From Octopus vulgaris (taxonomy: Eukaryota): a stretch of 64,000 bases of DNA. Location of the stretch: assembly GCA_951406725.2 (NCBI GenBank), contig OX597819.1, positions 4,092,001-4,156,000 on the forward strand, read 5' to 3'. The translations under genes and the position numbers were made by a program. The notes below the pieces were generated by a model. It ran no database searches. It saw nothing but the letters and a program-made list of their open reading frames with translations, and was not told the origin of the DNA. Below are positions 7,440-60,343 of the stretch, piece after piece (position 1 is the stretch's first letter; every line of letters starts with the position of its first letter).

Positions 7440-7770
7440 CTATCTGTTTTCTTTAGGGGACCAAAACCGTAACAAAAATTTTGTCACATATTGTCATGTT
7501 CCGAAAAGTTCTGTCCTTGAGTTTAGACATGTAGTAGGGTCTACGCTGCTTTTCCAGATAAGCCATCTCTCCATGTCGCATAGACCGCACTTTCCGCTGC
7601 CGTTGGTGTAGGGCTTACATTTGGCCAAAATCTTCCAATGGATGTTATAATCGACACCTTTATCTTTTAAAGACTAAATATGATTAGATAATTTTGTCGC
7701 TTTTCTTTTGTTCCAGTGCCTAAAACTCAAGGTGTGGTTATTGAACCTGGCCTTAAAATTACCCTCTGTT
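7440..7770 (-). pseudogene. Penelope-like retroelement GIY-YIG endonuclease C-terminal fragment (5'-truncated, 2 in-frame stops)
   Basis: One frame reads [98 protein letters not shown], matching PLE EN motifs FKxRxxNH, LSxxIW, CxLCxxE, LNxRxE and KFLL. Confidence 0.85.
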
Positions 7771-7785
7771 ATCTTACCGTTTTTA

Positions 7786-7835
<50 letters not shown>

Positions 7836-18607: not shown

Positions 18608-18912
18608 CTTGCTACAGTATATTATTTGATGTACATCTATTTGTTGAACTGCTATCTTACTTGACCTCAAGGGATACATCATATATAAAGACTGATATGC
18701 AAAGATAAACATACATGGGAGCACACACACACATACACATGTCTGTCTGTGTGTGTGTGTAATAATGAAGTCTAGCCAGAAAGTGATGTTTTAAGCCATT
18801 TGATACTTATATTTCAAGTTTCCATAATATATAAGAAATGCATCCATTACGTAACCCTTCTTCAGTTAAGGCACTTCAAAACTAATGTATATATATATAT
18901 ATATATGTATGT

Positions 18913-22700: not shown

Positions 22701-23320
22701 TTCCGTTATACAAATTTCCCCTCATGCGTACAAGGGCTAAAAACTTGTCATGGCGTTTACGACAATCCAAGGACACAAGTGTTTTTTTTAAACCTCACAT
22801 TTTCTGTAATACCGTGTTCTATCAAACTCTCTGTTACCTTGTTTCTTTTTCTTTGTCTCCTCTAACTTTTTATTAAGAAAAGCGTTCGAGCTTCTCTGTG
22901 CGTGTATGAGCGCGTATATTTACATGGATATTGTTTCTTTTTGTGAAGACAGTAGAGCAAAGGAGACGTTCCTCTAGAGCTACCCCGAAGTCATGTCTCC
23001 TCTATTTATAAGCTTTCTTAATTTAATTCGAATTTCTTACACGTATGCCCTTTCAGAACAGATGTAGTTAATGACTCCAAACGTTCTTGTCGTTGAATTT
23101 CTGATCCGGTACTCTCAGTATACAGATGTGTTTGGGAAATAAATACTTCTGGCACGAGCGGTAGTTTTAATAATAATATATGTATATACATAAACACACG
23201 CATGCACAGACGTGCAAATACATGTTTACACACACACGCTTATACATACACATATATAAACATATGTGTGTGTGTGCGTGCAAATTTAGTGATTTTTAAA
23301 AATAAATTGAGAGAAAATTA

Positions 23321-23368
23321 ACAACCTTAATCGATTTTCGAATCTTATTGGATTCTCATCAGAGTCGT
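23321..23368 (-). ncRNA. Minimal type-I hammerhead ribozyme motif
   Basis: Minus: acgact|CTGATGA|gaatc caataa gattc|GAAA ATCGA TTA|aggttgt; 5-bp stem II starting G-C, palindrome AATCGATT, stem I with one bulge. Confidence 0.7.
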
Positions 23369-23510
23369 CTACATCAATTTGATCAATCCCCAAAGAAACT
23401 AGTTGCTGATCTGTTTATATACGTAACAATTCTAGCTGCTACAGAAACCTGGAACGACTAGTTTGCAAACCGCAAACAAACACACTCTAAAACATTAGAG
23501 TAGTAATATC

Positions 23511-31933: not shown

Positions 31934-32082
31934 AATAGTCACAATATTATTATTTAAAATATTTAAACGTACGGGTTGTGCGAATACAAATCTGTTAAAT
32001 AACCGTTCAGAGCTATGACCATCTTGCATACATTGCATAACCCGTACGTTTAAATATTTTAAATAATAATATTGTAACTATT
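31934..32082. repeat. Inverted repeat, 48-bp arms (2 mismatches), 53-bp spacer
   Basis: 31934-31981 versus 32035-32082. Confidence 0.85.
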
Positions 32083-35542: not shown

Positions 35543-36723
35543 TGCCTATGTAGCCTATATAAACAACAAATTTTCCTTGAGGTATAGTCTACGAAATTCA
35601 CTTGCAAGGCATTGTTCGACTTGTAAAAGATAGTAAAGGATATTTACTCAAAGTGCTGCACATGTGTTTGTATGTTTATACGTATGTATATGCATTTATT
35701 AAAGCTAAGTTTCTGGAATATTTTGCATATTTTCACAGTTCTATTGCCTAATAGTATTTTTAAAAAAAATTTATCCTGTCTTCACGAAATTCGGTTTCTC
35801 AGTATTGTTGCTGGGACATTTAGGCACATGTTAAAGTTTTCTAATAATTACAGGTATAAATATAATCCGGGTATAGCTACTGTGGATATTACATTTGTTC
35901 TCCATAGATGATTTCTGTTGAACTTCTCTTTAACATTATGTTAACATCTGCTGATTTAATCTGCTGTGTACTCGTTCTTTTTAGTCCCAAATCATTTTGT
36001 CGGGACTTCTTGCCTAAATATTGGTTTCAAATTTTGACACATAGTCAACAATTCCGGTGGGAGTGGGTAAGTCGATTTTCCTAATATACAGTAATAATTT
36101 GGAATTATATTCACTACTGAGTTAAAGTAGTAGATATAATACAGAGAAAGGAGAAAAGCAAGTGATCTTGTATCTGATGAATGCTATAAACGAAGAGATT
36201 CCGAAAGGCTAGGTAAAATAGAAGAAATATTTATTATATATTTTGTCAGTCAAGTAGTAAGTATTCTCTGAAATTACCTTTTGAGGTGAAGGTCATTGAT
36301 ACAAACAATTAATGGTTATGTCACCTTATTGATTTGATCTTCATATTAAAATTCATTAGTGAATTTTATTAGTGTAGTATATATGTTCAAATAAATGGAA
36401 ATATATAGATGCCACTGTACAATTCATTTACAGATATTATTATAATTTACAAATAATTTACAAATATTTTTTCACATACATAGCCAAGTATAAATAAACA
36501 TCAACATGACCAATATATCGGGAAAATATTCATTTTAAATATATAAGCACATTAGTAAAAAAAAGGCAATCGAAGGAAAAAAGAAAGATTATAAGAATGA
36601 GCTTGGAATGAAAAAGAGCTGAGTCGAATTGGGAAAGAATACCAAATGGGGAGTCAGCTCAGTGTTTTATATGTTCTACTAAGTAAAGTCTTCGGGTGAG
36701 TGACTAACACAAACAATTTTCAC

Positions 36724-36754
<31 letters not shown>

Positions 36755-37180
36755 TGTATGTGTGTGTGTATGTATGTATGTATGTATGTATGTATGCATG
36801 TGTGCATGTACGTATTATATTTATATATATATATAATTGTATGTATGTATGTACGCATGCGTGTATATATTATATATATATATATATATGTATATTTGTA
36901 TATATAAATATAGATATTATGTACATGCTCACATAAATAGAGTCCCGCATGCACACACATGTGCCTGATTGTTTGTATATATACGTACATATATGTCCTA
37001 ATGACTAGGCATGTATATATATGCATGCGGCTATGGTTTTGTATTTAATGTTTTTATATGCATACATTTATGTCTGCTTGTATTTACACGTGCAAGTGTA
37101 TACTTAGTTGTTACCCTCTTGTTCTCCTATCCTGTCATTTTTTCTAACTGTGCGATTGCATGTGTGTGTGTGTGCGATTG

Positions 37181-37223
<43 letters not shown>

Positions 37224-38008
37224 GTGTGTGTGTGTGTATGTGTGTATGTGAGAGAGAGAGAGAGAAAGAGAGAAAATGGACTAGTCGGGGACCACACATG
37301 AGTACTCAGTAACAAAAAATAAGATAAGGAATTATTGTTACTGAACAACCTGCAAAAAGAATTTGTTTTAAATGAAGTATATTTGCACAAAGCCCATCGC
37401 ACACTCACCCCCAATTGTATGACCTAAACTGATATATTGCGCCACGTGCCAAACACAAAAGAACGCATGTAAAGATGTAAAACCCACCAAGCTTGGCACT
37501 GGGTCCCTTTACCGTCACAGTCCACATCGCATATGAAGTGTCCTTTTCTTTTGTCAACCAAAATCAGACATATATGCAGGAATGCAGGAAACAGCATATT
37601 TAAGAGCAGGATGTTTGAAACCCCTTTCTTTCATGGTTCAGATTTTGTGGTCGTAGAGCGCGTTTGTGCAGCGTTTCTATGTGCCCACGATTTAGTATTT
37701 CTATGCGACCATGCAAATAGTAAGTGTTGATTTTGTGTTTGGTTCATTCATCCTTTACGCAGGTCTTGTTTTTGTTTTGCAGGATGTATGGCGACACTCC
37801 TTACCGACCAAACCTGATAACGGTGCTAATTTAGTCACCGACGAACTGATCACGTCACAGGATATATAGGATTACATGGTATTTGGTAATTCTTGGAGCA
37901 GCCTATCATAATGCTACACACATATATATATACACACAAACACAGGCCCGCATGCATACACACACACACACACAGGCCCGCGTGCAAACACACACACAGG
38001 CCCGCGTG

Positions 38009-38047
<39 letters not shown>

Positions 38048-38455
38048 CTGTACGCATTTGTATGTCTGCGTTGCATTTCCTTTCGTTTCTTCCTTCCTGT
38101 CTTCAACGCTTTCAACTCAGCTGGTTTTATAATCTCTCTCTCTCTGACCATCGCTACTCTTCCCTAGCCTTCGCCACTTCAAACCGTTCTCTTATTTTCA
38201 CTTCTGTATCACTTTCTCTACCACCATTGTATATATACTTCAACGCCAATGCATATTTCTCTTCTTCTGAGTAAGAGTTCTATGCAAAGCACAAGACAAA
38301 ACGTATTTCCTCACGACAGAAAACATTAATTCACCGTTTGAATTATTTCATTATTTTTTGCTGATAAAAAAATATCCCTCAGGTCATCGGATTCTACGAT
38401 AATTGTCGCAGATTCGGATTGAACCTGGACCTACAAAACGATGACTTTTGACGTT

Positions 38456-38487
<32 letters not shown>

Positions 38488-39038
38488 TCAATTAAAGCTT
38501 AACAAAGATAATTTCCTAATAGATCTGCTCTGGAATTCACGAAACAGGGCTTTTAATTCTTACTAAATTGATAGTACCACCCAAAAATGTAAATTACTAC
38601 AATCCGGACGAGGATAAGAACTATCCGTTGCCTGAAACATCAAAAGCTATCCTAGAGTGATAATGACGACTAACCGAATTTCTTGTTTCAGCCGTCATCA
38701 CAATATTTTACAATCCCTAAATCCTTCGCGGCCCACCACCTACCTCAACATATAAAGTAGCTCGGTGGAAGCCTTGAAAGCGATCTGTTTAATAGTCCAT
38801 TAAATTTTCCCACTGATCTCATCTTTTTCCGCAACTGACAATGTGACAGTCGGCTAAAAGACTGATAATGTTAAAAGCAACAACAGAAGCAATAACCGGA
38901 TCGATGACAATGTGATATGGACGATACGAGTTGAGCTGTTCGTACAATCTTCCAAATGTTTGTGGTTAAATGCATCACATTATTATACATACGAGAGGGG
39001 GGGGTGTATGTGTGTATATATATATATATATATTGGTG

Positions 39039-39072
<34 letters not shown>

Positions 39073-39251
39073 ATAATAAATATTAGGGAATAAATCCAAA
39101 TTTACAGGGAAAAAAATCAGATTTAGGATTAAATCCAATTTTATAGTAAAATATTATAAAATATTATTAGAGACAAAACCACTATTTTGCAAAACAAACA
39201 AGGAAAGACTTAATCAATACATAAAATTTTAATAAATAGTAAAAAAAACCG

Positions 39252-39294
39252 CCACTACAATCGTTTCTTGTCTTGATCGACAATCTTCAGGTGG
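39252..39294 (-). ncRNA. Minimal hammerhead ribozyme in the palindrome left arm (intact core)
   Basis: Minus: ccac|CTGAAGA|ttgtc gatcaa gacaa|GAAAC GATT GTA|gtgg. Confidence 0.75.
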
Positions 39295-39360
39295 ACTTCA
39301 ATTTACAAGTCAGTTTCAAATTATAAATTTATAATTTGAAACTGACTTGTAAATTGAAGT

Positions 39361-39403
39361 CCACCAGAAGATTGTCGATCAAGACAAGAAACGATTGTAG
39401 TGG
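39361..39403 (+). ncRNA. Mirror hammerhead copy with a core mutation (CAGAAGA)
   Basis: ccac|CAGAAGA|ttgtc gatcaa gacaa|GAAAC GATT GTA|gtgg; T>A at 39366. Confidence 0.6.
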
Positions 39404-39784
39404 CGGTTTTTTTGACTATTTATTAAAATTTTATGTATTGATTAAGTCTTTCCTTGTTTGTTTTGCAAAATAGTGGTTTTGTCTCTAATAATATTATATA
39501 TATATATATATATAAAATTATAAATGAGGGTGAAAAATCGATATTAATTTAATAATACCATTAATTTAACACCAAGTGGCTTAGCACAAAAAACTACGGA
39601 GAAAATATGTATAACTCTCTAATAATTTATATATATATATATATATATTTTACACACACACATATACATATATACATACATACATACATAAATATATATA
39701 TATATTTTACACACACACATACATATATACATACATACATATATGCATACATACATATGTGTGCGTCAATTCTATGTTTGTGTA

Positions 39785-39995
39785 TGTAAGTTTGCAGGTG
39801 TTTTTCTGTCTGTAGTTGATCCTCAAACCGATGATGGTTTGTTTATTTTCACCCGTAACTTAGCGATTCAACTAAAAAAAATAGTACTAGAATAAATACC
39901 ACAATTCAAGAACAAAAGTGTAGGAGATTGATTTATCCAACTATAGCCTTCGAAATGGTATCCTAGCATGGCCGTACTTTTATGACTGAAACAAG
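39785..39995 (+). mobile_element. SINE family A 3' half, degenerate
   Basis: ccgtaacttagcgattc..agcatggccgtac..tgactgaaacaagta. Confidence 0.65.
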
Positions 39996-40704
39996 TATCT
40001 ATCTACCTGAGAAGACATGCATAAAAGAGTTAGTTTGTGTGTCTTGTATTTGTATGTGTGTATTTGTATGTGTGTGTCAGTGTATGTGAGTTTGTGTATG
40101 CGTATCCTTTCTCTGTTTAGATGTGTGTGTGTGCGCGCGTACCTGTGTATGTGTGTGTGTGTATTTGTAGTTTTAGTGAACAGCATACTCTATTTTTCTT
40201 CTGAACAAATAACAGTAAATGTTATAAATAATTTGCCATCCCGTGAACCCCATATAAAAGTCTTGCGCACAAACACCATTGCCTTGATCATATAACAAAA
40301 CAGAAACATAAATAGCGAGAACCTTACACTTGCTTACATTATGGCGCCTTTATTACACTTCCCCTTAAATACATAGATAATTCCTGAATCAGATACAAGC
40401 ATGTTGTTCTTTCCTTTTCTCAAATGAATGAATTAGTTTTGTCCAAGAAGCAAAATTTAGAATAGCAAAGCGAAACACCACGTAGTAAGTAGTCCGACAG
40501 CCTTTCGTTAATGTCAGTTGGTCAATCCTTAAACGTCGCATATTGTCAAGACGTTTGACTTCCTTTAAGTTGTAGAGCGAAACGGAACTGTTTAATGTTC
40601 ATATTTTCCAAATGACTTGCATTAATGTAAGTTGTTTCCCAGTTTCAACGAAGAACTTCACCTCTCAGAAACGCACTTTATGATATATATATATATATAT
40701 ATAT

Positions 40705-40739
<35 letters not shown>

Positions 40740-40751
40740 TAGATATATATT

Positions 40752-40861
40752 ACCGTGACCGACCAGGCTATCAGATGTTGCTACACATCGCTGGTCACAA
40801 TGCGCTTCGCATTGTTTTAGCCTTCAAGTGACGCCACCCACTGGCTAAGCGAGCAGGCCAA
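40752..40861 (-). mobile_element. 3' tail of SINE family C (same tail as 56571)
   Basis: accgtgaccgaccaggctatcagatgttgctacacatcgctggtcacaatgcgcttcgcattg identical to 56581-56643. Confidence 0.85.
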
Positions 40862-40870
40862 TATATATAT

Positions 40871-41006
<136 letters not shown>

Positions 41007-41010
41007 ATAA

Positions 41011-41250
41011 GTGACAATTATTCAATAGCCAAGATAAAACTCTGAGTTTCGGATGCCGAAGTGGAAATCCACAACAGCATCTCTTCGGTTATCTGGCCAT
41101 CTGTTGTGGATTTCCACCTCGGCATCCGAAACTCAGAGTTTTATCTTGGCTATTGAATAATTGTCACATATTATTTCAAGGATAAATCTCCTCTATTTAC
41201 ATAATATTGATGACTCTTTCTTTCTTTTGTTATCTTACCGTTTTTACCAA
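41011..41250. mobile_element. PLE pLTR-like foldback: 67-bp arms (41011-41077 / 41101-41167) plus an extension ending gttatcttaccgtttttaccaa(TA)n
   Basis: Arms differ at 1 position; flanked by (GT)n and (TA)n; terminus shared with 7767-7789. Confidence 0.8.
41033..41093 (-). ncRNA. Hammerhead motif with core variant CCGAAGA
   Basis: Minus: gataa|CCGAAGA|gatgctg..gtgg attt ccac..cggcatc c|GAAAC TCAGA GTT|ttatc; perfect 5-bp stem I. Confidence 0.65.
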
Positions 41251-41304
41251 TATATATATATATATATATACATACATACATACATACATACATACATACA
41301 TACA

Positions 41305-41338
<34 letters not shown>

Positions 41339-42120
41339 CATACATAGATATAATATATATCAGGTCTAAGCTTTAATAGTGTTATAATTCAATTCGTAGT
41401 TGTGTCAGTTACTGTCCGTCATTTTAAAATGGCCACGCGATTGACTAGTATGAATTCGCTTGCCAGACGTTCCAAACTCGGTAAAATCTTCAGATTTGCT
41501 GTCCCCACTCGACATTCCAAACCCGCCAAAATCCTCAGACCTGCTTTCCCCACTCTCAGCATTATTTACTGCAAACTACAGTGATTTCTATTCTTCGCAG
41601 TAGGTTGCTTTTGCACCCTTTCTTCTCAGACACACCCGATCTTTTCCTCTCTTTTCTCATCATACATATTATATAGCAACCTGCCTTGTAGTAGACAACG
41701 TATATAAGCACAACGCTCAGATAAACGAACCTCTGGAATCTTTCACTGCACGAGTTGTTATTTTTTTAGCCACAATTTAGCCACAATTTAGTTCTACCTA
41801 AAGCTTGTCAATTATGACTGTGTTATGTTTATGTTTTGTTTTTTAAAAAAATATTTATGTCCTGGATTTATTTTCATTCAGTAATTGAGACGATAGTGTG
41901 TGATTTGAAGAAAATCTGTCCACCATTTTTCGAATGTCGGTCGCGTTTCCTGCAGGTATCAATCTGTAGCTATGTAACAGGAACATTAATTTCGTCCATA
42001 TCTCTGGTGTAGGAATGTCTGAAAATGACATGCACATAACTACTTCCTCCGTACTAAACTAATAAAGACAACAAATATAAATATATTCGTGTGTGTGTGT
42101 ATGTGTGTGTGTGTGTAGTT

Positions 42121-42295
42121 AATCCAGACATGAACAAAGAGAAAACACAACAACGCGAGGACGTGGAGCAAGTATAGTGTTATTGGACGCTCAGGAAAGG
42201 AAAGAAAGAAAGGATGATTTAATGTTTTAAGCGGAGCTCTTCGTCAGAAACATAGAAAAAGGAAAGAAAATCGCCAATGATACACACGCGGTCAC
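42121..42295 (-). mobile_element. PLE pLTR-like relic with a degenerate hammerhead (42217-42251)
   Basis: Minus: gttt|CTGACGA|agagc tcc gctt|AAAAC; lies between (GT)n and (TA)n. Confidence 0.5.
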
Positions 42296-42312
42296 ATATA
42301 TATATATATATA

Positions 42313-42392
<80 letters not shown>

Positions 42393-42601
42393 TATAATAA
42401 GCGTAGATCGTATACGAGTGGGTATATATTAATAAAAAAGAAGTATATATATATAGAACAACCTCGAAACCACAAGTGTAAACAAGAGAGACAGAACAAG
42501 GCAGAAACAAGGAAAATGCCACTTATATTTGAACACTATACAAATATTCTTTTAAAAATACTTTTCTTTTAATTTTTCTAAATTTAATTACTTAATCGTT
42601 A

Positions 42602-42639
42602 CAGTTGAAAAGGTCTCAAAATGACTGAAACCGGTACTG
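42602..42639 (+). ncRNA. Degenerate hammerhead motif
   Basis: cag|TTGAAAA|ggtc tcaaaat gact|GAAAC CG GTA|ctg; two core substitutions, all three stems retained. Confidence 0.5.
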
Positions 42640-43542
42640 AAATGTTTTTTATATAATTATTTTAGCATTTTCTATTTTGATTTATTTTTTCATATATATA
42701 TATATATATATATATAGTATTCAGAAGTAACCAAAATAACTCGGTTGTTGGAGCATCGTTAAGCATAATACTTTTCATAGTGGATACGGAGGTGGAAATT
42801 AGTCTGGCAGAACTAATTCTTTTCCATCGAACTGAAGTCATCTAATTGAACATACATAGATCCGAACTACCTACACTGTTTCCATATATATGAGCAGTCT
42901 CGTGTCTGCTCATATATATTCAGCATCGTTAGTACGCATCAATCTCTCTCCACGAATGGTACTACCCCAAACACCAGACTTCTCTTTTCATTCCCATGGC
43001 TAAACTTTTCTTCCACTGCTTTTATAATATTATTTCCTTATCGAGACCATCAGTACCTTACTCGGAATGCAACGTTTTAGTTTATACATTGTTAAATTGA
43101 AAAGTATATTAGCTGTTGTGCCTAGACGAAAGGGTATCACTCATAAATTAGTAGTTGCCAATACCACAGTGACCAGTCATAGATGTGTGTGTGTTGACTA
43201 AGTAAAATAATGGGGTTTTTTTTTTCATCTGGTCTATATGTGCAATTATATATGATATAAGATAAAGTTAAAACGATAGTAAAGCATCTGCGGTATGACT
43301 GAAGAAAATATTCAGCAGAATAGATTAATATTTAAATATAGAGCCTTTATACACATAGCATTGATCTAGAACTTTGATGATTGTTTGTTGTTTGTGTATA
43401 AAACCTCTAAGACGTTGATTGATTGCGAAATATCAAATACAGCTCAACTAAATGGAAAACATTTGTTTAATTTCACTCAGACACAGACACACCGACATAC
43501 ATATATGCATCATACACATACATACATACATCATACACATAC

Positions 43543-48142: not shown

Positions 48143-48559
<417 letters not shown>

Positions 48560-48695
48560 TACACATGTATTAGAATTTTCTCTGATTTTTCAGATTTTTG
48601 TATGCTAGACTACTGGTTTTAAATTAATATCAATTTATCTCCCTCATTATTTAAATATATATATTAGAAGGTTTAGAGATGATGTACAGGTATTT

Positions 48696-49012
<317 letters not shown>

Positions 49013-50666: not shown

Positions 50667-50749
50667 CCTATGGACGCGCGTTTCGGAATTAGGTTGGAAT
50701 GAAGAATATAGAATTATACTTTACCGACCGTTTTCCTCTTCAGCATAGG
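50667..50749 (-). ncRNA. Type-I hammerhead ribozyme, canonical core with GUC site
   Basis: Minus: cctatg|CTGAAGA|ggaa..extended stem II..ttcc|GAAAC GCGC GTC|catagg; 6-bp stem I, palindrome ACGCGCGT; predicted cut between 50673 and 50672. Confidence 0.88.
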
Positions 50750-51161: not shown

Positions 51162-51624
51162 AAACGAGATGATGAACAATTATCTGACGAACTTCATCCG
51201 CTTACAGCTGTTTCTGCTATGCGATGAAGTGAAACTCATGGTGAGTGCCAGATTAAAAGCTGTAAAACCTATAACTATACCATAAAAAGTGTTACTAAGG
51301 AACTCAAATATGACCCCACTGAATCTGATAGCAGAAACTGGTGTAACGTAATGAACTTCATAGATAATTATTTATTTTTTCGTCTTTTCATGTTCTTATT
51401 AACGTTCTGTACTCGTCTAATATTTCATTCTGAAGTATGTTGTGTATTGAGTTTTTACACCAGGTTGTATATGCATAAGCTGGGAAGTGAATGGAATGTC
51501 TGGTCTGTGTCTCGTTGTGGCTATCCGTCGTAAAAAAAAGGGGGAAATAGGGGGAAATATATGTATGAATATATGTATATATGTATATATATATACGAGA
51601 AAGAAGCAACAAGAATGGATTAGT

Positions 51625-56570: not shown

Positions 56571-56880
56571 CACCGTGATCACCGTGACCGACCAGGCTAT
56601 CAGATGTTGCTACACATCGCTGGTCACAATGCGCTTCGCATTGTTTTTTAGCCTTCAAATGACGCCACCCCGCTGGCTAAGCGAACAGGCCAACAGAAGA
56701 AAGAGTGAGAGAAAGTTGTGGCGAAAGAGTACAGCAGGGATCGCCACCACCCCTGCAGGAGCCTCGAGACCCTTTAGGTGTTTTCGCTCAATAAACACTC
56801 ACAACGCCCGGTCTGGGAATCGAAACCGCAATCCTACGACCGCGAGTCCGCTGCCCTAACCACTGGGCCAATGCGCCTCC
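56571..56880 (-). mobile_element. SINE family C, full length, perfect 17-bp TSD
   Basis: Minus head ggaggcgcattggcccagtggttagggcagcggactcgcggtcg; attaataatggacaaat at 56554-56570 and 56881-56897. Confidence 0.92.
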
Positions 56881-57910: not shown

Positions 57911-58017
57911 AAAAATATGGAACGCTTCACGAATTTGCGTGTCATCTTTGCGCAGGGGCCATGCTAATCTTCTCTGTATCATTCCAATTTTAGAATATGT
58001 ACCGCCGTAGCTAGTAC
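57911..58017 (-). pseudogene. U6: U6 snRNA full-length copy (107 nt), probably a retro-pseudogene
   Basis: Minus: gtactagctacggcggtacatattctaaaattggaatgatACAGAGAagattagcatggcccctgcgcaaagatgacacgcaaattcgtgaagcgttccatattttt; ACAGAGA box and AGC triad present, several substitutions versus canonical U6. Confidence 0.95.
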
Positions 58018-59910: not shown

Positions 59911-60299
59911 CTCTCTTTACTCTTTTACTTGTTTCAGTCATTTTACTGCGGCCATGCTGGAGCACCGCCTTTAGTCGAGCAAATCGACCCCGGACTTATT
60001 CTTTGTAAGCCCAGTACTTATTCTATCGGTCTCTTTTGCCGAACCGCTAAGTGACGGGGACGTAAACACACCAACATCGGTTGTCAAGCAATGCTAGGTG
60101 GACAAACATACACACACACATATATATATATATACATATATACGACGGGCTTCTTTCAGTTTCCGTCTACCAAATCCACTCACAAGGCTTTGGTTGGGCC
60201 GAGGCTATAGTAGAAGACACTTGCCCAAGGTGCCATGCAGTGGGACTGAACCCGGAACCATGTGGTTGGTAAGCAAGCTACTTACCACACAGCCACTCC
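59911..60299 (-). mobile_element. SINE family A, nearly full length, very similar to 3789-4177
   Basis: gcggccatgctggagcaccgcctttagtcgagcaaatcgacccc..cttaccacacagccactcct. Confidence 0.9.
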
Positions 60300-60308
60300 T
60301 TGTGTGTT

Positions 60309-60343
<35 letters not shown>

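Follow-up and report, generated by a model that had tools for sequence, protein, structure and literature searches.

EN+ Penelope-like elements (PLEs), such as Penelope/Poseidon, Neptune, Nematis and Hydra, are described as inserting with an inverted, 5′-truncated copy and a palindromic junction (PMC3846280, PMC8557442). The head-to-head palindromic junction is given as the commonest of their inverted forms, one of the inverted pLTRs optionally carrying a tail (PMC3846280). The typical insertion is reported to combine the inverted 5′-truncated copy with a 30–40-bp tail at one end and a bias for microsatellites (PMC8557442). A small palindromic helix III has been reported for the PLE hammerheads, and hammerhead pairs lying on opposite strands, 100–700 bp apart, were noted in Schistosoma (PMC4209133). 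Biochemical insights have come from a lizard PLE protein, which in vitro cuts AT-rich DNA on both strands and extends both. This protein, a predicted dimer, uses ATT/AT-rich targets, and its reverse transcription starts at two internal sites bracketing the tail; insertion does not require the hammerhead of the lizard element, whose cleavage depends on the protein (PMC11167929). As for the common octopus, 336 recently active PLE insertions distributed among 31 families are reported in Octopus vulgaris (PMC13282606).

Other described systems share some of these features. Non-LTR retrozymes, which are thought to be PLE-derived, are short, non-coding, low-GC elements with a type I hammerhead, arranged as head-to-tail tandems giving unit-length circles (PMC7229834; bioRxiv 10.64898/2026.07.22.740005). 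Naiads, families of which are listed for Octopus, are described as having a (TA)n target, inverted copies and a tail, as lacking a canonical hammerhead, and as old remnants in cephalopods (PMC8557442); the endonuclease of their ORF is N-terminal. The palindromic Harbinger repeats of Xenopus are DNA transposons with a palindromic consensus, which fold on themselves into a tight duplex without any neighbouring copy and are ADAR substrates (PMC5625713).

The locus analysed here lies in a 64,000-nucleotide stretch of O. vulgaris DNA (contig OX597819.1, positions 4,092,001–4,156,000, forward strand), hereafter the window, in which all positions are numbered. It is a 336-bp palindrome (39160–39495) made of two 168-bp arms with zero spacer, as proposed in the initial annotation. 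Tracing the pairing outward both ways places the axis at 39327/39328 and yields exactly two mismatches in 168 steps, at 39289/39366 and 39241/39414, both in line with that annotation; the third mismatch only comes at step 169. A repeat finder concurs (173 nt at 98%). Both arm mismatches are transversions, and 39241/39414 adjoins a homopolymer run. Neither is an A-to-G change, so that the mismatches show no A-to-I signature. Ten perfect zero-spacer palindromes with arms of at least 12 bp were counted in the window, the nine others being TA microsatellites. The RNA of 39072–39495 folds at −268.9 kcal/mol, versus −65.7 ± 4.9 kcal/mol for 100 shuffles.

The left arm (39160–39327, minus strand) looks like a 5′-truncated PLE-like terminal repeat reading away from the axis, and the right arm (39328–39495, plus strand) is its mirror copy, also reading outward. 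Going outward, each arm includes a type I hammerhead. The right arm ends with a CTAAT motif (39485) and directly abuts a (TA)n tract, while the left side adds about 80–88 nt before (TA)n is reached. This one-sided extension, announced as about 90 bp, indeed measures 88 nt (39072–39159, minus strand). The (TA)n tracts already noticed on both sides span 39015–39071 on the left and 39496–39514 on the right, a target-site duplication, variable and often absent in PLE insertions, not being legible within such a sequence. The extension comprises two degenerate 39-nt units (39082–39112 and 39121–39151), 77% alike, and its self-match at an offset of 39 was equalled in 1 of 2000 shuffles. It looks like two tails in series, since CTAA end motifs recur on the left side at 39167, 39123 and 39083, and since the right arm stops just past the mirror of the first of these. 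The centre of the palindrome (39321–39334) is AT-only and is the putative joining point of the two copies. Read on either strand, it supplies a TATAAA immediately upstream of the arm, a weak signal given the 174 TATAAA found window-wide. The repeat search detected no tandem array across the arms, only the inverted pair.

Two mirror hammerheads had been recognized initially, one intact on the minus strand and one broken at its catalytic core on the plus strand. The change of CTGAAGA to CAGAAGA at 39366 on the plus strand does hold, and the minus copy (core at 39290–39284) is intact as far as core letters are concerned, but not in every other respect. The minus-strand type I hammerhead (39252–39294) has a GUA cleavage triplet and shows the complete core C3 U4 G5 A6 N7 G8 A9 / G12 A13 A14 A15 / U16 H17 with paired junction stems, according to the core criteria given for active hammerheads in PMC3088659. 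Its stem I has 4 bp, its stem II 5 bp, and its helix III only 2 bp with a self-complementary loop; the predicted cut falls at 39256/39255. Helix I can be extended to 11 bp over 39317–39245, past an inserted hairpin. The mirror hammerhead (39361–39403, plus strand) departs from the same core at U4, replaced by A at 39366. A strict type I descriptor found a single match in the window, on the minus strand at 39290, and none in 300 shuffled windows.

Several features set these hammerheads somewhat apart. They resemble the PLE type I hammerheads of PMC4209133 by the CUGANGA/GAAA core (full in the minus copy), the short stem I and the self-complementary helix III supporting a dimer. They differ by the pair closing stem II, which in both arms is U10.1–A11.1 instead of the G10.1–C11.1 pair described there as highly conserved, as well as by the absence of an unpaired base after A9 and by the hairpin inserted in helix I. 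Rfam called no hammerhead in the whole window at the gathering score, its sole call being a U6 snRNA, nor in 36000–43000 at E ≤ 10. The Rfam miRNA-precursor matches over the palindrome at this relaxed threshold, far under their gathering scores, were rejected as reflecting a generic hairpin. The U6 call itself (57911–58017, minus strand) is a full-length match of 108.5 bits adjoining a dispersed-repeat copy, and may be a gene or a retrocopy. The minimum-energy fold of a single arm differs from the hammerhead fold. Two single arms co-folded without constraints do yield a dimeric hammerhead, at −31.2 kcal/mol, the helix III region being self-complementary with two G–U pairs. Such a dimer could not form in cis at this locus, because the two copies are on opposite strands. 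A free single arm could conceivably cleave as a monomer, since invertebrate hammerheads typically have a helix III of 2 bp capped by a tetraloop, and efficient cleavage is described for many of them (PMC7229834). U4 belongs to the hammerhead consensus core, and a U4C variant is reported to be less active in vitro while still supporting a viroid (PMC3088659). The literature searched gave nothing relevant on the effect of U4A, and the plus-strand hammerhead is thus likely impaired rather than proven broken.

On each strand the hammerhead sits in the second arm, behind its own full complement. In a read-through RNA the complement would thus be made first and the hammerhead second, the two closing into a 168-bp duplex, and no self-cleavage is predicted. 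The free fold reaches −270.0 kcal/mol, compared with −195.8 kcal/mol when the hammerhead is forced, a cost of about 74 kcal/mol. In an 800-nt read-through RNA, 41 of the 43 ribozyme positions on the minus strand and 42 of 43 on the plus strand are paired to their mirror at p > 0.99. Both ribozymes are therefore predicted to be zipped shut within the hairpin duplex; this is an equilibrium prediction, and a transcript initiated past the axis but ahead of the ribozyme would evade it. The geometry of the palindrome itself would then silence the ribozyme on both strands, and tests of strand bias must consequently separate palindromic from solo copies. The U4 change is likely neutral, since both hammerheads are predicted to be masked.

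The initial proposal of a PLE-type insertion with inverted pLTRs is supported by this anatomy and by the published PLE forms (PMC3846280, PMC8557442). With good confidence, the palindrome can be read as two head-to-head repeat ends, likely truncated 3′ ends of a PLE, that arrived in one insertion, with masked hammerheads and a likely neutral U4 change. The outward reading of both hammerheads shows that the two copies are joined head to head. As in EN+ PLE insertions, an inverted 5′-truncated head-to-head layout is present, with a microsatellite target, (TA)n on either side, a one-sided, tail-like extension and a repeat-borne hammerhead. In contrast to these insertions, the palindrome has no ORF and both of its copies are reduced to a repeat end. 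The insert cannot move by itself: no ORF of 100 aa is found at the locus, and tblastn with 150 PLE-like proteins revealed no autonomous EN+ PLE (a single ORF combining a telomerase-like RT with a GIY-YIG endonuclease) there. PLE membership rests on anatomy, because the locus lacks an ORF and no other copy of its family was found in the 64-kb window at E ≤ 1e-3. Other points weigh against the PLE reading: the hammerhead is not called by Rfam, the best fold of a single arm is not a hammerhead and the base of stem II is U–A, the extension of 80–88 nt is about twice the 30–40 bp of the published tail, and the endonuclease remnant described below is linked to a different family. A 29-nt probe from the palindrome family gave no match in prokaryotic genomes, and none of three sequence probes was found in the PLE supplement of PMC8557442. 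Neither a published account of this repeat family nor any mention of it in the literature on octopus hammerheads was found in the sources searched; subscription papers and supplements may hold one.

The palindrome is, like the retrozymes, short, non-coding and low in GC with a type I hammerhead, but instead of head-to-tail tandems it consists of one inverted pair, whose ribozymes are predicted to be masked. It shares the (TA)n target and inverted copies of Naiads and has a tail-like extension as they have a tail; its full hammerhead core and near-identical arms distinguish it from them. It self-folds into a tight duplex as the Harbinger repeats do, with the difference that its palindromic structure was likely formed at insertion.

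Six local inverted repeats were revealed by self-BLAST of the window, one of which is a pair of copies of a dispersed repeat that we take to be SINE-like. One-sided extensions are seen in three of the five others, namely the palindrome, 41002–41255 and 48648–48910. The repeat at 41002–41258 matches over 74 of 76 bp, with a short spacer and a one-sided extension of about 80 nt; in each of its arms a minimal hammerhead is represented by its 3′ half, a good 5′ core being absent. The inverted repeat at 48648–48910 is set in (TA)n and bears a tail of about 36 nt on one side only; CTAAT stands at each of its outer ends, and no hammerhead was found in it. The last two look different: 48241–48565 is MITE-like, with symmetric 108-bp arms (104/108) around a 110-bp spacer, and 31934–32082 is AT-rich, matching over 49 of 51 bp, with a spacer. 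A 116-bp repeat is also present in two copies, 94% identical (40749–40861 and 56578–56693), the former lying between TA tracts. The frame of the commonest dispersed repeat (60140–60340, plus strand) has as its sole match a hypothetical protein of Argonauta hians, 78% over 60% of its length, as would fit an octopod host.

A trace of PLE coding sequence was found at 7449–7797 on the minus strand, where a remnant of a GIY-YIG endonuclease with one in-frame stop bears an inverted short end at its 5′ break. Its 7449–7772 part is the only strong window match to the 150 PLE-like proteins in tblastn. The 92-codon frame of this remnant has 2774 protein matches at E ≤ 0.001, with 58% identity at best. 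Among them is a 723-aa protein in which RT and GIY-YIG motifs were recognized by eye, these motifs being the ground for the RT and GIY-YIG labels used here. Pfam gave no real family for six relatives, a PDB sequence search nothing significant, and a word-index search no relatives of greater length. The final 31 nt of the element at 41 kb, with the start of its TA tract, are repeated in inverted orientation at 7767–7797. This shared end beside the remnant implies that PLEs making inverted (TA)n ends have been active in this genome, although from a different family than that of the palindrome.

Further hammerhead-like motifs are scattered in the window. On the plus strand, 51175–51245 is a minimal hammerhead adjoining (TA)n, with a perfect core at 51184, an 8-bp stem II and a 5-bp stem I; it is directly followed by an ATG and by a splice-donor-like GTGAGT, which fits a PLE repeat with an intron. 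This motif was passed over by scans imposing short stem II loop limits or an obligatory helix III. On the minus strand, 23315–23372 has a perfect core at 23362, a palindromic helix III and a weak stem I (2 bp), and 18790–18875 a perfect core at 18865 without stem I. The hammerhead-like motif at 42605 (42595–42650, plus strand) carries two core changes. The motifs at 23362, 18865 and 42605 belong to families other than that of the palindrome. A loose match at 50667–50749, with a 52-nt stem II region, was dropped as likely due to chance.

How could such a palindrome be formed? In the sequence of events that we prefer, and to which we give about an even chance, both ends of a single break would have served as primers. 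A GIY-YIG/RT protein supplied by another locus of the genome would have cut the (TA)n tract, and the element RNA would have been reverse-transcribed from both broken ends, as PLE biochemistry suggests. One start may have been at the outermost site and the second start two tail units further in, leaving the one-sided extension. Both cDNAs would have halted some 37 nt beyond the hammerhead core; their 3′ ends may then have been joined through the short AT palindrome, producing the zero-spacer junction. The two mismatches would have arisen afterwards as neutral changes, or else stem from errors of copying or of sequencing. Priming from both ends is favoured because the lizard PLE protein cuts and extends both strands in vitro (PMC11167929).

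Fold-back self-priming is nearly as likely and would give an identical product: one cDNA (or antisense RNA) would have folded over at the AT palindrome in the centre and served as its own template in the outward direction, and either endonuclease cleavage or microhomology with (TA)n would have fixed the second end at the tail boundary. Published work interprets junctions of this kind in this way (PMC3846280), and we rate fold-back a little short of even. The zero spacer and the equal truncation of both arms follow from it directly, and near-identity of the arms is expected. It nevertheless requires an extra step to end the copy exactly at CTAAT, here and also at 48648–48910, and the in vitro extension of both strands from two start sites (PMC11167929) speaks against it.

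An assembly or sequencing artefact, affecting the whole palindrome or just the mismatch at 39366, appears improbable. Inverted PLE structures are known to trouble assemblies (PMC8557442), both mismatches are transversions, and 39241/39414 borders a homopolymer. However, a fold-back chimera would mirror the flanks, whereas here the mirroring ends at the end motif of the element and the flanks beyond it are unmirrored. The arms also are unequal in length and disagree at two sites, the one-sided layout is seen at two other loci of the window, and the window contains no N.

It is quite improbable that a single truncated PLE copy came first, and that a later template switch during replication or repair made the inverted duplication. 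Microhomology would be readily available in the axial AT palindrome and in the (TA)n on either side, and (TA)n tracts are break-prone. Against this, unrelated families of repeats in the window show the same layout, which fits the published PLE form, and the copy ends on the tail-boundary motif.

The initial annotation left the choice between chance and selection as the cause of the plus-strand core loss, and chance is the better of the two. Selection would have removed the plus core since it cut a plus-strand host transcript, which we hold to be very improbable. One of just two mismatches does fall in the conserved core, hammerhead-bearing tandem repeats are reportedly depleted in Xenopus introns (preprint 10.64898/2026.07.22.740005), a depletion for which no analysis by strand was found, and a transcript begun inside the palindrome would evade masking. 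However, masking is predicted for the plus hammerhead whether mutated or not, and even an intact copy would be expected to leave a host transcript uncut, so that little remains for selection to act on. The probability that one of two random changes strikes 11–15 core positions out of 168 is 0.13–0.17, and PLE hammerheads are described as weak, requiring a partner or a protein (PMC11167929, PMC4209133). Perfect cores number three on the minus strand (39290, 23362 and 18865) and one on the plus strand (51184), 0.025 per shuffled window being expected by chance (40 shuffles), and this count was in favour of selection. The claim that the best-preserved hammerheads are mostly on the minus strand is nevertheless weak: with a stem I of at least 4 bp, one remains on the minus strand (39290) and one on the plus (51184), the latter with an intact core, an 8-bp stem II and a 5-bp stem I. 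The 64-kb window thus offers no usable hammerhead strand bias. No host exon was detected in it either by a Pfam scan of stop-to-stop frames of at least 45 aa, covering 299 of the 304 non-repetitive frames (692 frames in total) and one extra fragment, a scan that exons under 135 bp would escape. The only frame passing the curated Pfam cut-offs, a poly-N/poly-K one, was rejected as a host exon. In the literature searched, no precedent emerged for an intron strand bias or a strand-specific loss of hammerheads; subscription papers and supplements may hold one.

A palindromic MITE or a TA-targeting foldback DNA transposon is hardly tenable: the TA flanks, the near-perfect arms, the existence of palindromic MITEs (Xenopus Harbinger; PMC5625713) and the resemblance of 48241–48565, with its symmetric 108-bp arms, to one of them are outweighed by ends unequal by 80–88 nt, the absence of symmetric terminal repeats and a non-chance hammerhead in the arms.

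The insertion had also been called young, which the low divergence of the arms makes plausible (2/168 = 1.2%, 95% range 0.14–4.3%), though homogenization could mimic youth. At 0.0036 per million years, the rate given for O. bimaculoides (PMC13282606), its age would be about 1.7 My (0.2–6.0) if this rate is per lineage, or 3.3 My (0.4–11.9) if it is pairwise. The arms of the other four inverted repeats are also close (74/76, 104/108, 91/95 and 49/51 matches), which could reflect homogenization of the arms in all of them.

The palindrome is likely an ordinary PLE-type inverted insertion of known layout, with a double-length tail. As a single locus it has small weight, being a clear instance of a known form of PLE insertion. 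Its double-length tail and matching outer ends provide genomic traces of PLE priming, a mechanism which is still unsettled. A much broader proposal, which we regard as doubtful, is that octopod head-to-head PLE insertions are mass-produced self-silencing ribozyme hairpins, supplying much of the long dsRNA for the exceptional A-to-I hyper-editing of the octopus. If so, priming from both ends with stepped starts of reverse transcription, leaving tails in multiples of about 40 nt, would build near-perfect duplexes of 100–170 bp, and masked hammerheads would let such palindromes persist in transcribed DNA. A fraction of 4.4e-3 of octopus loci is reported to be able to form long duplexes, the responsible repeat being left unnamed in the part of PMC5625713 available to us. 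The five non-SINE local inverted repeats per 64 kb, three of them with one-sided extensions, give a hint about density. If they were equally dense genome-wide, such palindromes would be a candidate source of the long dsRNA behind cephalopod hyper-editing.
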